DNA of 64,000 nucleotides, taken from assembly GCF_011045215.1 (NCBI RefSeq), contig NZ_CP049201.1. One strand, given 5' to 3'. This DNA is from Escherichia coli. Lineage in GTDB: Bacteria > Pseudomonadota > Gammaproteobacteria > Enterobacterales > Enterobacteriaceae. Positions 6,001 to 12,000 of the stretch are shown in pieces; positions within the stretch are counted from its first letter, which is position 1; every line of letters starts with the position of its first letter. Position numbers: made by a program.

Positions 6001-9000
6001 GCAGAAATTTATCGTTAACAGTAGACGCTGACCCACAGGCGGAAATTAGCAGCAAAGAAACGCTGGCTGAGAATCTGACATCATTAACACTTTCCAATGG
6101 TGCCAGGGTTATTCTGGCAAAATCCGCGGGTGAAGAGCAAAAGCTACAAATTATTGCCGTATCGAATAAAGGCGATTTAAGTTTCCCTGCGCAGCAAAAA
6201 TCACTTATCGCGCTGGCAAATAAAGCAGTTAGCGGAAGCGGCGTTGGCGAACTCTCCTCTTCCAGCCTGAAACGCTGGAGTGCGGAAAACTCGGTAACCA
6301 TGAGCAGTAAAGTCAGTGGCATGAATACGTTGCTCTCCGTTAGCGCGCGGACTAATAACCCTGAACCTGGTTTTCAGTTGATTAACCAGCGAATCACCCA
6401 CAGCACGATTAACGATAATATTTGGGCATCGCTACAAAATGCTCAAATTCAGGCGTTGAAAACGCTTGACCAGCGTCCAGCGGAGAAATTCGCCCAGCAG
6501 ATGTATGAGACGCGCTATGCTGATGACCGCACGAAATTACTGCAAGAAAATCAGATTGCACAGTTTACTGCCGCAGATGCGCTGGCTGCCGATCGCCAGT
6601 TGTTTTCATCTCCAGCGGATATCACGTTTGTCATTGTCGGTAATGTCGCAGAAGACAAACTCGTGGCGTTAATTACGCGTTACTTAGGATCAATCAAACA
6701 CTCTGATTCGCCATTAGCCTCAGGTAAACCATTAACTCGCGCGACGGACAACGCATCGGTTACTGTAAAGGAACAAAATGAACCTGTGGCACAGGTTTCA
6801 CAGTGGAAGCGTTATGATTCCCGGACACCTGTAAATCTGGAGACGCGTATGGCGCTCGATGCTTTTAACGTCGCACTGGCAAAAGATCTACGCGTTAATA
6901 TTCGTGAACAGGCATCTGGAGCATACAGCGTTTCTTCTCGCCTCTCGGTTGATCCTCAGGCCAAAGATATCAGTCATTTGCTGGCTTTTACTTGTCAACC
7001 AGAACGACATGATGAACTGTTAACGTTAGCGAATGAAGTGATGGTTAAGCGTCTGGCTAAAGGGATCAGTGAGCAAGAACTGAATGAATACCAGCAAAAC
7101 GTTCAGCGCAGCCTCGATATCCAACAGCGTAGCGTTCAACAATTAGCGAACACCATTGTAAATAGTCTTATTCAATATGACGATCCTGCAGCATGGACTG
7201 AGCAGGAGCAATTGTTGAAACAAATGACGGTAGAGAATGTTAACACTGCCGTTAAACAATATCTTTCTCATCCGGTAAATACTTATACTGGAGTATTATT
7301 GCCAAAATAATAACAGCCCCGTCAACACATCGTTGGCGGGGATTTTAGCAATATTCGCTATTTTTATGTAATAATTTTATAAATGCGTTCAAAATAATAA
7401 CCAAGTACTAATAGTGATATTTTAAGGTCTGATTTTTACGTGATAATTCAGGAGGCACAGAAAGCGCATAAAAATAACAACATAAAACACCTTGCCACCA
7501 CCCAAGAACTCTCTATTGCATTGTTTTTTAATGAAAAAATATTATTCCAACAATATCTCACGATAAATAACATTAGGATTTTGTTATTTAAACACGAGTC
7601 CTTTGCACTTGCTTACTTTATCGATAAATCCTACTTTTTTAATGCGATCCAATCATTTTAAGGAGTTTAAAATGGATAAGAAGCAAGTAACGGATTTAAG
7701 GTCGGAACTACTCGATTCACGTTTTGGTGCGAAGTCTATTTCCACTATCGCAGAATCAAAACGTTTTCCGCTGCACGAAATGCGCGACGATGTCGCATTT
7801 CAGATTATCAATGACGAATTATATCTTGATGGCAACGCTCGTCAGAACCTGGCCACTTTCTGCCAGACCTGGGACGACGAAAACGTCCACAAGTTGATGG
7901 ATTTATCCATTAACAAAAACTGGATCGACAAAGAAGAATATCCGCAATCCGCAGCCATCGACCTGCGTTGCGTAAATATGGTTGCCGATCTGTGGCATGC
8001 GCCTGCGCCGAAAAATGGTCAGGCCGTTGGCACCAACACCATTGGTTCTTCCGAGGCTTGTATGCTTGGCGGGATGGCGATGAAATGGCGTTGGCGCAAG
8101 CGTATGGAAGCTGCAGGCAAACCAACGGATAAACCAAACCTGGTGTGCGGTCCGGTGCAAATCTGCTGGCATAAATTCGCTCGCTACTGGGATGTGGAGC
8201 TGCGCGAGATCCCTATGCGCCCCGGTCAGTTGTTTATGGACCCGAAACGCATGATTGAAGCCTGCGACGAAAACACCATCGGCGTGGTGCCGACTTTCGG
8301 CGTGACCTACACCGGTAACTATGAGTTCCCGCAACCGCTGCACGATGCACTGGATAAATTCCAGGCCGACACCGGTATCGACATCGACATGCACATCGAC
8401 GCTGCCAGCGGTGGCTTCCTGGCACCGTTCGTCGCCCCGGATATCGTCTGGGACTTCCGCCTGCCGCGTGTGAAATCGATCAGTGCTTCAGGCCATAAAT
8501 TCGGTCTGGCTCCGCTGGGCTGCGGCTGGGTTATCTGGCGTGACGAAGAAGCGCTGCCGCAGGAACTGGTGTTCAACGTTGACTACCTGGGTGGCCAGAT
8601 TGGTACTTTCGCCATCAACTTCTCCCGCCCGGCAGGTCAGGTGATTGCACAGTACTATGAATTCCTGCGCCTTGGTCGTGAAGGCTATACCAAAGTACAG
8701 AATGCTTCCTACCAGGTCGCTGCCTATCTGGCGGATGAAATCGCCAAACTGGGGCCGTATGAGTTCATCTGTACGGGTCGCCCGGACGAAGGCATCCCGG
8801 CGGTTTGCTTCAAACTGAAAGATGGTGAAGATCCGGGATACACCCTGTACGACCTCTCTGAACGTCTGCGTCTGCGCGGCTGGCAGGTTCCGGCCTTCAC
8901 TCTCGGCGGTGAAGCCACCGACATCGTGGTGATGCGCATTATGTGTCGTCGCGGCTTCGAAATGGACTTTGCTGAACTGTTGCTGGAAGACTACAAAGCC

Positions 9001-12000
9001 TCCCTGAAATATCTCAGCGATCACCCGAAACTGCAGGGTATTGCCCAACAGAACAGCTTTAAACATACCTGATAACGTTTAACGGTAACGGTGTCCCGAA
9101 ACGAACCCGTTTCGGGACAATTTCCAAAGTCTGTTCACTGGCATTAGCAACGGAAAATATTGTTCTGAATACGCTTCAGAACAAAACAGGTGCGGTTCCG
9201 ACAGGAATACCGTTTTAGGGGGATAATATGGCTACATCAGTACAGACAGGTAAAGCTAAGCAGCTCACATTACTCGGCTTTTTTGCCATAACGGCATCGA
9301 TGGTAATGGCTGTTTATGAATACCCTACCTTCGCAACATCGGGCTTTTCATTAGTCTTCTTCCTGCTATTAGGCGGGATTTTATGGTTTATTCCCGTGGG
9401 ACTTTGTGCTGCGGAAATGGCCACCGTCGACGGCTGGGAAGAAGGTGGTGTCTTCGCCTGGGTATCAAATACTCTGGGGCCGAGATGGGGATTTGCAGCG
9501 ATCTCATTTGGCTATCTGCAAATCGCCATTGGTTTTATTCCGATGCTCTATTTCGTGTTAGGGGCACTCTCCTACATTCTGAAATGGCCAGCGCTGAATG
9601 AAGACCCCATTACCAAAACTATTGCAGCACTCATCATTCTTTGGGCGCTGGCATTAACGCAGTTTGGTGGCACGAAATACACGGCGCGAATTGCTAAAGT
9701 TGGCTTCTTCGCCGGTATCCTGTTACCTGCATTTATTTTGATTGCATTAGCGGCTATTTATCTGCACTCCGGTGCCCCCGTTGCTATCGAAATGGATTCG
9801 AAGACCTTCTTCCCTGACTTCTCTAAAGTGGGCACCCTGGTTGTATTTGTTGCCTTCATTTTGAGTTATATGGGCGTAGAAGCTTCCGCAACCCACGTCA
9901 ATGAAATGAGTAACCCCGGGCGCGACTATCCACTGGCTATGTTACTGCTGATGGTGGCGGCAATCTGCTTAAGCTCTGTTGGCGGTTTGTCTATTGCGAT
10001 GGTCATTCCGGGTAATGAAATTAACCTCTCCGCAGGGGTAATGCAAACCTTTACCGTTCTGATGTCTCATGTGGCACCGGAAATTGAGTGGACGGTTCGC
10101 GTGATCTCCGCACTGCTGTTGCTGGGTGTTCTGGCGGAAATCGCCTCCTGGATTGTTGGTCCTTCTCGCGGGATGTATGTCACAGCGCAGAAAAACCTGC
10201 TGCCAGCGGCATTCGCTAAAATGAACAAAAATGGCGTACCGGTAACGCTGGTCATTTCGCAGCTGGTGATTACTTCTATCGCATTGATCATCCTCACCAA
10301 TACCGGTGGCGGTAACAACATGTCCTTCCTGATCGCACTGGCGCTGACGGTGGTGATTTATCTGTGTGCTTATTTCATGCTGTTTATTGGCTACATTGTG
10401 TTGGTTCTTAAACATCCTGACTTAAAACGCACATTTAATATCCCTGGTGGTAAAGGGGTGAAACTGGTCGTGGCTATTGTCGGTCTGCTGACTTCAATTA
10501 TGGCGTTTATTGTTTCCTTCCTGCCGCCGGATAATATCCAGGGTGACTCTACCGATATGTATGTTGAGTTACTGGTCGTTAGTTTCCTGGTGGTACTTGC
10601 CCTGCCCTTTATTCTCTATGCTGTTCATGATCGTAAAGGCAAAGCGAATACCGGCGTCACTCTGGAGCCAATCAACAGTCAGAACGCACCAAAAGGTCAC
10701 TTCTTCCTGCACCCGCGTGCACGTTCACCACACTATATTGTGATGAATGACAAGAAACACTAAGCATGTCTGAATGGTTATAAGACAAGGGAGCGATAAT
10801 TCATCGCTCCCTTTTTCGTGCTTGCTGTCGTATTGACTTAACCGGGATAAGTACGAGAATGAGCGCACATGTGTTTACCGGAAACCAGCACATATGGATA
10901 TCTGCTCCCGAAACAAGAAATTAACGATTAGAAGACCAGCGATACTGGTTGCACTGGCACTTTTACTGTGTAGTTGTAAAAGCACGCCTCCAGAGTCCAT
11001 GGTGACACCACCAGCGGGTTCAAAGCCACCAGCCACGACGCAACAATCGTCACAACCGATGCGTGGCATTTGGCTGGCCACGGTGTCTCGCCTCGACTGG
11101 CCACCGGTTTCCTCGGTTAACATTAGTAACCCCACCAGCCGGGCCCGTGTACAACAACAGGCGATGATCGACAAACTGGATCATCTGCAACGTCTCGGTA
11201 TAAACACGGTCTTTTTCCAGGTCAAGCCGGACGGTACCGCCCTGTGGCCTTCAAAAATTTTGCCATGGTCCGATCTTATGACCGGTAAGATTGGTGAAAA
11301 TCCGGGTTACGATCCGCTGCAATTTATGCTCGACGAAGCCCACAAGCGTGGGATGAAAGTACACGCCTGGTTTAACCCCTATCGCGTATCGGTTAATACG
11401 AAGCCCGGTACTATCAGGGAACTGAATAGCACTCTGTCTCAACAACCGGCGAGCGTCTATGTGCAACACCGTGACTGGATCAGAACGTCTGGCGATCGCT
11501 TTGTCCTCGACCCGGGCATCCCTGACGTTCAGGACTGGATCACATCAATAGTCGCAGAAGTGGTTTCCCGCTATCCGGTAGATGGCGTGCAGTTTGACGA
11601 CTATTTCTATACTGAGTCACCGGGTTCACGGCTAAATGATAACGAAACGTACCGTAAATACGGAGGCGCATTTGCGTCAAAAGCAGACTGGCGGCGCAAC
11701 AATACTCAGCAGTTAATTGCAAAAGTATCGCACACCATTAAAAGCATTAAGCCGGGAGTCGAATTTGGCGTTAGCCCGGCAGGCGTGTGGCGTAACCGAT
11801 CACACGATCCGCTCGGCTCCGATACCCGAGGCGCGGCAGCCTATGACGAATCCTACGCTGACACTCGTCGATGGGTGGAACAAGGATTGCTGGATTACAT
11901 TGCTCCCCAAATTTACTGGCCGTTCTCACGGAGTGCCGCGCGTTATGACGTGTTGGCAAAATGGTGGGCGGATGTCGTTAAACCGACCAGGACCCGCCTG

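Follow-up and report, generated by a model that had tools for sequence, protein, structure and literature searches.

The gadBC acid-resistance operon of an Escherichia coli genome carries K-12-like control elements and a conserved stem-loop between its two genes

The gadBC operon of this E. coli genome (assembly GCF_011045215.1, contig NZ_CP049201.1) raises the question of whether its control elements match those of K-12, and of what the hairpin between gadB and gadC might be. The window, the whole 64,000-nt stretch of DNA that was analysed, has the locus order yddB-pqqL-gadB-gadC-digH, which is the standard E. coli synteny; the features of the operon are collected in Table 1. The K-12 reference throughout is MG1655, compared by direct alignment. 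Gene conversion from gadA was considered as a source of the differences in gadB, but these match K-12 gadA at just 5 of 26 sites and therefore give no clear gene-conversion signal. The account that very probably covers the locus as a whole is a standard gadBC operon with K-12-like control and an RNA stem-loop in the spacer. Judged from its sequence, the operon is the ordinary, already known acid-resistance operon of E. coli, and the comparison amounts to a consistency check and no discovery. A preceding sequence-only reading had described it in the same terms, which was fair given the K-12-identical elements and the majority promoter allele described below.

Table 1. Features of the gadBC locus, with positions numbered from the first letter of the window.
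Feature	Position	Strand	Description
GadX/GadW-type motif	7425-7444	+	AGGTCTGATTTTTACGTGAT; 1 mismatch to ChIP-exo motif AKGKCTGWTWTTWWYMYVAK (PMC4918353)
Polymorphic distal promoter segment	7480-7551	.	holds 12 of the 15 substitutions relative to K-12
GAD box	7573-7592	+	exact 20-mer TTAGGATTTTGTTATTTAAA; site for RcsB/GadE heterodimer
-35 element (inferred)	7609-7614	+	TTGCTT; begins 16 bp past GAD box as in PMC2887963; same as K-12
RcsB box	7622-7637 (approximate limits)	+	approximately CGATAAATCCTAC; abuts or overlaps -10; identical to K-12
-10 element	7632-7637	+	TACTTT; identical to K-12
gadB mRNA leader	7645-7671	+	start near 7645 inferred; Shine-Dalgarno AAGGAG at 7660-7665; identical to K-12
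gadB	7672-9072	+	466 aa; relative to K-12 gadB, 0 amino-acid and 26 synonymous changes
Hairpin 1	9092-9103 / 9108-9119	+	perfect 12-bp stem TGTCCCGAAACG / CGTTTCGGGACA; loop AACC (4 nt)
24-nt block	9127-9150	+	AAGTCTGTTCACTGGCATTAGCAA; invariant in 7 Escherichia lineages
Hairpin 2	9160-9184	+	perfect 10-bp stem TTGTTCTGAA / TTCAGAACAA; loop TACGC; -10.9 kcal/mol
Hairpin 3 (predicted)	9192-9213	+	8 pairs; loop GACA; adjoins gadC ribosome-binding site upstream
gadC ribosome-binding site	9217-9223	+	AGGGGGA; just downstream of hairpin 3
gadC	9228-10763	+	511 aa; relative to K-12 gadC, 0 amino-acid and 24 synonymous changes
Probable operon terminator	10787-10816	+	canonical hairpin AAGGGAGCGAT-AATTC-ATCGCTCCCTT, then TTT; 3' of gadC

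The GAD box of the K-12 gadA and gadBC promoters was reportedly described by Castanie-Cornet and Foster in 2001. The canonical 20-bp box was said to be unchanged upstream of gadB in this genome, and this holds: the match is exact and equals the published GadE site (PMC4918353). It is the sole match in the 64 kb even when up to three mismatches are allowed, with 0.02 matches expected by chance. Alignment with the K-12 gadB promoter, which had been proposed as a check, showed the last 121 bp before gadB (7552-7672) to be identical to MG1655, so that the box carries no substitutions. The same 20-mer was found unaltered in all eight gadB promoters sampled from other E. coli genomes and in K-12 gadA; E. 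albertii has one substitution. Studies in K-12 have shown that the GAD box is bound by the RcsB/GadE heterodimer, leading to promoter activation, and that it is centred at -63 from the transcription start, with the -35 element beginning 16 bp downstream (PMC2887963). Since no base differs over the 121 bp between 7552 and the gadB ATG, the spacing in the window is that of K-12, and the -63 centre, transferred from K-12, would place the transcription start near 7645. Binding by RcsB/GadE and a requirement for the box in activation would likewise carry over from K-12 by identity. In comparison with the K-12 gadA and gadBC GAD boxes, the 20-bp sequence, the -35 spacing and the 121-bp proximal promoter and leader are all shared; the box itself shows no difference, and the departures from K-12 consist of 15 positions upstream of 7552.

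The remaining proximal elements also follow K-12, and 4211 of 5431 E. coli records carry the proximal promoter at 99% identity or higher, making it the majority allele. The -35 element was not picked up by a generic sigma-70 scan. From the K-12 literature, transferred by sequence identity, the RcsB box beside the -10 element would permit repression and the short gadB leader would be a target of CsrA. CsrA binds the gadA and gadB leaders, and four GGA motifs are present in the gadB RNA that it binds (PMC11210196); the corresponding candidate CsrA sites in the window are the GGA motifs at 7662, 7674, 7692 and 7704, in sequence identical to K-12.

The 15 substitutions relative to K-12, all in 7401-7551 upstream of the GAD box, had not been mentioned in the sequence-only reading. 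Of 5431 E. coli records, a single one matched a 272-bp query covering 7401-7672 at 99% identity or more, and 3214 matched it at 90-95%; the distal gadB promoter is highly polymorphic across the species. In K-12, GadX/GadW and H-NS act on sequence upstream of the GAD box, according to a model figure (PMC2887963). The GadX/GadW-type motif in the window, lying roughly between -220 and -201 relative to the presumed transcription start, is identical to K-12 and is the single match in the window; since 0.33 matches are expected by chance, it is a candidate site and suggestive only. No RutR box was matched near gadBC, the matches elsewhere in the window being distant and at chance level. Because of the 15 distal differences, regulation may differ from K-12 in quantity. 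The genes for the trans-acting regulators (gadE, gadX, gadW, rcsB and rpoS) are located outside the window, which counts against an unqualified equation with K-12. With the published proximal promoter elements, the spacer and both proteins the same as in K-12, and with the majority allele at the promoter, the expectation that gadBC is probably regulated as in K-12 is nevertheless a fair one. The strain thus carries an intact, K-12-like gadBC with the common promoter allele, and its glutamate-dependent acid resistance is therefore expected to be wired as usual; this in itself matters little.

The gadB-gadC spacer (9073-9227, 155 nt) is 100% identical to that of K-12 MG1655. A perfect hairpin with an 11-bp stem, ending at 9118, had been placed here; the hairpin is present and perfect, but its stem is 12 bp long and ends at 9119, the 11 bp being the inner pairs. 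This stem-loop, hairpin 1, begins 20 nt past the gadB stop codon and folds alone at -20.7 kcal/mol (z = -5.35); its pattern occurs once in the 64-kb window and in none of 100 shuffles. In a small set of 11 distinct Escherichia sequences, compensatory double changes, contributed by two lineages, were found at 4 of the 12 pairs, and 95% of cells were paired. Four compensatory pairs were reached in 1 of 500 shuffles, and slid controls gave 0-1 such pairs with 35-50% of cells paired. The species compared have diverged at 23-33% of third positions in gadC codons. Folding energies in five lineages were -20.7, -20.6, -18.0, -19.2 and -14.3 kcal/mol; E. albertii keeps -20.6 kcal/mol despite changes at 9 of the 24 stem bases, the MOD1-EC7003 lineage has a weakened stem, and polymorphisms within E. 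coli are confined to the loop. Hairpin 1 is a conserved RNA structure among these 11 sequences, and the retention of pairing by compensatory changes across Escherichia species argues that it acts as RNA. An Rfam scan of 7000-11000 returned no match at an E-value of at most 1.

The same substitutions bear on whether the element could instead be a DNA palindrome that serves as operator for a dimeric transcription factor. A perfect inverted repeat with a 4-bp spacer would suit such a site, and numerous regulators act on the gad genes, but what is preserved is the pairing and not the sequence of the half-sites, a pattern that marks a folded strand as opposed to a site recognised by a protein. Hairpin 1 also resembles neither the RutR box nor the GAD box, leaving an operator extremely improbable. 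Only slightly less so is a functionless leftover, such as a palindrome arisen by chance or what is left of a repeated extragenic palindrome. Although the searched literature documents no function, shuffles never yield hairpin 1, it is unique in the window and present in a single copy per genome (156-nt query), and its structure has been kept across species through compensatory change. A REP or BIME identity was rejected because the spacer is single-copy, matching a median of one place per genome, a count in which short copies elsewhere could escape the E-value limit of the search.

REP hairpins between malE and malF are intercistronic stem-loops that stabilise mRNA. Hairpin 1 is similar to these in its stability and in its place immediately 3' of an operon's upstream cistron, whose product, a soluble enzyme, is presumably required in larger amounts than the membrane transporter encoded downstream. 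It differs in being single-copy and of unrelated sequence. The K-12 gadA-gadX spacer offers a second parallel, a perfect 15-bp hairpin about 18 nt past the gadA stop codon and upstream of gadX: here too, a long perfect stem follows a paralogous decarboxylase gene and precedes a downstream gene. The gadA loop is longer (13 nt), and its hairpin is unrelated in sequence, since the homology of gadA and gadB ends 5 nt past the stop codon. It is quite possible, if just short of probable, that hairpin 1 is an intercistronic protector of mRNA 3' ends or a partial stop, by which gadB is favoured over gadC. In the gadBC mRNA it would block 3'-to-5' exonucleases or halt some polymerases; a long-lived message for gadB alone would then build up, so that decarboxylase would exceed antiporter, and gadC would be supplied by read-through transcripts. 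The searchable literature describes no gadB-gadC hairpin, terminator or monocistronic gadB transcript, a supplement of mapped E. coli 3' ends has no gadB or gadC entry, and data on transcript 3' ends, half-life or protein ratio for hairpin 1 were not found in the searched literature. The word "regulatory", as applied to hairpin 1 beforehand, is an assumption, the searchable literature showing no such role in K-12.

Hairpin 1 is unlikely to be a Rho-independent terminator or attenuator at which a transcript of gadB alone would end. As in such terminators, a stable (-20.7 kcal/mol), GC-rich stem-loop, with G-C at 7 of its 12 pairs, directly follows the stop codon, and three T residues come after the stem (ATTTCC). 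However, hairpin 1 has no T-run and so is not a canonical terminator: its tail ATTTCCAA holds 3 T in 8 bases, it was not listed by a terminator scan of the + strand, and conservation does not extend to its few T residues, E. albertii having AACTCC (tail AACTCCAA). Moreover, gadC lacks a convincing promoter of its own, the sole candidate being a 9/12 match at 9198-9227. A proper T-run does follow the hairpin downstream of gadC, which on its sequence is probably the terminator of the gadBC operon.

Conservation extends well beyond hairpin 1. The spacer is single-copy, and 4972 of 5408 records match it at 99% identity or more. Of its 155 positions 114 never vary, compared with 234 of the 511 third positions in gadC codons (P = 2e-12); the whole spacer is much better conserved than gadC synonymous sites. 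Invariant positions make up 34 of 40 in 9120-9159, where the share among third positions of gadC codons is 46% (P = 3e-7), and in 9120-9227 the count is 86 of 108 across species (P = 6e-13). This part of the spacer, which has changed far less than neutrality would predict, probably adjusts how well gadC is translated or how stable the message is. Hairpin 2, which had not been noted previously, has weaker comparative support, with one compensatory pair, a C-A mismatch in three sequences and -5.5 kcal/mol in E. albertii, and is terminator-like by scan on the minus strand only. Seven of the eight pairs of hairpin 3 never vary, so that covariation gives no evidence either way. Small ORFs in the spacer (22-33 aa) have weak starts or are antisense, overlap the hairpins and were not considered genes.

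These features could be taken to mean that the spacer is chiefly a structured gadC 5' leader, with hairpin 1 as no more than its upstream boundary. Control of gadC would then be separate from that of gadB and would be exerted by CsrA, by a small RNA or from an internal promoter. The invariance of 9120-9227, including the 24-nt block, would fit such a leader, as would the abutment of the invariant hairpin 3 on the ribosome-binding site, the GGA motifs at 9152, 9204 and 9221 (of which the one at 9221 falls within that site) and the binding of CsrA to the gadA and gadB leaders (PMC11210196). On the other hand, the searched literature holds no gadC experiment, the promoter-like match is weak and no known Rfam RNA element was matched. 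A leader of this kind is improbable as the main explanation, and it is compatible with the protector or partial stop preferred for hairpin 1. A broader proposal, somewhat doubtful but a little less so, is that the spacer, far from being a mere linker, forms a dedicated post-transcriptional control module conserved throughout the genus and made up of the covarying stem-loop, an invariant single-stranded 24-nt block and the hairpin beside the ribosome-binding site with its GGA motifs. Selection on the gadB-gadC spacer as an RNA element is undescribed in the searchable literature, and the comparative evidence for it, notably at hairpin 1, is a modest by-product of this analysis. Such a module, if real, would set the GadB:GadC ratio or allow separate regulation of gadC, with CsrA or a small RNA as possible agents. 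It could also serve the glutamine-dependent system, in which GadC is needed and GadB is not.

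The genes yddB, pqqL, gadB, gadC and digH correspond to b1495-b1491 of E. coli MG1655 in the opposite orientation. The closest complete E. coli genome was that of PapM-32-1, a baboon isolate, with 99.6% identity over the 24 kb compared, which places the window in E. coli in the strict sense, in a lineage without an identical complete genome in the collection searched. The GadB and GadC proteins are identical to those of K-12, and their genes carry 26 (gadB) and 24 (gadC) synonymous substitutions with respect to K-12. The regulators gadE, gadX, gadW, rcsB and rpoS are located outside the window. 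Several genes for leucine-rich repeat proteins or EspR1-type T3SS effectors are annotated at 20000-44000 in the best-matching genomes, adjoining narZ, narU, fdnG and maeA, and their number differs among strains. All of the features reported by the sequence-only reading are already present in K-12, the sequence of which has long been known, and its label of a consistency check was correct: the finding is ordinary and already known. The sole addition made here is comparative evidence for the gadB-gadC spacer as a selected RNA element, which amounts to a minor lead rather than a discovery.

Coordinates of genes, regulatory elements and hairpins at the gadBC locus
Feature	Coordinates	Strand	Remark
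yddB	2098-4470	+
pqqL	4515-7310	+
GadX/GadW-type motif	7425-7444
73-aa ORF	7440-7661
GAD box	7573-7592	+
gadB	7672-9072	+
gadB-gadC spacer	9073-9227
Hairpin 1	9092-9119
24-nt invariant block	9127-9150
Hairpin 2	9160-9184
Hairpin 3	9192-9213
gadC	9228-10763	+
Operon-end hairpin	10787-10816	+	textbook type with T-run, contrast to hairpin 1
digH	10894-12213	+

The GAD box is intact, as had been stated: the 20-mer TTAGGATTTTGTTATTTAAA occurs in the window as a single exact copy and is the same sequence as the published GadE site TTAGGAttTTgTTATTTAAa (PMC4918353). It is still the sole match in the window at up to 3 mismatches (0.02 expected by chance), and every property of a GAD box that can be addressed by sequence alone was found. 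In the alignment to the K-12 gadB promoter that had been proposed as a check, the window matches MG1655 at all 121 bp from 7552 up to the gadB start codon; these take in the GAD box and, 16 bp downstream of it, the -35 element TTGCTT, as well as the RcsB box, the -10 region and the leader. The GAD box, centred ~63 bp upstream of the transcription start, is required for activation and is bound by the RcsB/GadE heterodimer rather than by GadE on its own (apparent binding constant close to 10 nM), and the RcsB box adjoining the -10 element, conserved in gadB bar one C replacing G, helps to repress at high RcsB (PMC2887963). The leader RNA of gadB contains four GGA motifs; CsrA binds this RNA and represses its translation (PMC11210196). 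All four motifs are present in the window (7662, 7674, 7692 and 7704). Given this identity, the promoter workings described in the K-12 literature would be expected to apply to the window. A 73-aa ORF with a GTG start, which runs through the AT-rich promoter of gadB and its GAD box, is very probably spurious.

The window and MG1655 differ by 15 substitutions upstream of 7552, 12 of them within the 72 bp from 7480 to 7551 (~-165 to -94 from the inferred transcription start). Within E. coli the distal gadB promoter is a hotspot of polymorphism, with an allele of its own in nearly every sampled lineage, while hardly any variation occurs in the 115 bp downstream. A 272-bp query (7401-7672) matched 1 of 5431 E. 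coli records at 99% identity or more and 3214 at 90-95%, whereas the proximal 115 bp matched 4211 E. coli records at 99% or more, indicating that the window combines the majority proximal allele with a rare version of the distal region, which is variable in general. A motif close to the GadX/GadW ChIP-exo consensus (1 mismatch, identical in K-12) is only suggestive, because 0.33 matches are expected by chance. In E. coli JJ1887 (locus L010, 1-1705), pqqL, which directly follows ydeM, carries the annotation of a pseudogene truncated at its N-terminus. A deletion upstream of gadB has thus taken out yddA, yddB and the pqqL 5' part, leaving the GAD box and proximal promoter unaffected.

The hairpin noted between gadB and gadC is present and perfect, but the 11-bp stem ending at 9118 is the inner portion of a 12-bp stem, formed by TGTCCCGAAACG (9092-9103) and CGTTTCGGGACA (9108-9119) around the loop AACC. 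Folded alone, hairpin 1 has an energy of -20.7 kcal/mol (z = -5.35), and its pattern was found in 0 of 100 shuffles. In order to follow its evolution, the gadC start was scanned as a degenerate-codon pattern in one genome per species, recovering six Escherichia lineages: E. albertii, E. whittamii, two other Escherichia species and two species-level clusters labelled E. coli. Inside E. coli only the loop varies (AACC, AAGC or CACC); between species the stem sequence differs with pairing retained. In the 11 distinct sequences, 95% of cells are paired and 4 of the 12 pairs show compensatory changes on both sides, versus 35-50% and 0-1 pairs in controls in which the 3' partner was shifted by 1-3 columns; among 500 shuffles, only 1 attained as many compensatory pairs. 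Although 9 of 24 stem bases in E. albertii are not those of the window, its stem folds at -20.6 kcal/mol, and energies of -18.0, -19.2 and -14.3 kcal/mol were obtained in other lineages. By this comparison hairpin 1 is a conserved RNA structure, and pairing kept despite stem changes is the signature of selection on a folded strand, which would most simply be the mRNA. In the draft genome of Escherichia sp. MOD1-EC7003 (locus L008, 9301-9464), the stem is weakened (-14.3 kcal/mol) and single-base deletions occur within hairpin 2 and just 3' of hairpin 1; in gadC, only 8.6% of third codon positions differ between this genome and the window. These hairpin changes may reflect assembly error or real decay.

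A search of Rfam with 7000-11000 gave no match at E-values up to 1. A dispersed repeat (REP) was rejected as the identity of hairpin 1, since the spacer has a median of 1 matching place per genome and no other copy of the hairpin lies in the window. A canonical intrinsic terminator was also rejected, as the hairpin lacks a T-run (tail ATTTCCAA; AACTCCAA in E. albertii), and it was not listed in a terminator scan of the + strand. Homology between gadA and gadB extends only 5 nt beyond the stop codon. In the K-12 gadA-gadX spacer (locus L009, 1621-1663), a perfect 15-bp hairpin begins ~18 nt after the gadA stop, in a position like that of hairpin 1 but unrelated to it in sequence, suggesting that what is selected is the presence of a stem-loop immediately behind the decarboxylase gene. 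The favoured reading, at slightly less than even odds, is that hairpin 1 shields a gadB-only RNA at its 3' end or halts a fraction of polymerases; such protection or partial stop would raise the decarboxylase message above the antiporter message. No 3'-end, Northern or decay data for this site were found in the literature searched.

The 155-nt spacer is 100% identical to MG1655. Across seven lineages, 114 of its 155 positions are invariant versus 234 of 511 third codon positions of gadC (P = 2e-12); its 3' two-thirds (9120-9227) are invariant at 86 of 108 positions, versus 46% of the gadC third codon positions, and the block AAGTCTGTTCACTGGCATTAGCAA shows no variation. Hairpin 2, a perfect 10-bp stem (TTGTTCTGAA-TACGC-TTCAGAACAA) absent from the sequence-only reading, has weaker and mixed comparative support, with 1 compensatory pair, a C-A mismatch in 3 sequences and -5.5 kcal/mol in E. 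albertii. Hairpin 3 adjoins the gadC ribosome-binding site and is almost invariant, so that covariation gives no evidence either way. Three GGA motifs in the gadC leader region (9152-9154, 9204-9206 and 9221-9223), one inside the ribosome-binding site, are candidate sites for CsrA, which has been shown to bind the leaders of gadA and gadB (PMC11210196); no test on gadC was found in the literature searched. These features suggest that the spacer may also tune gadC translation or stability. On the minus strand, hairpin 2 is followed by a T-rich tail and was terminator-like in the scan, so it could end an antisense transcript.
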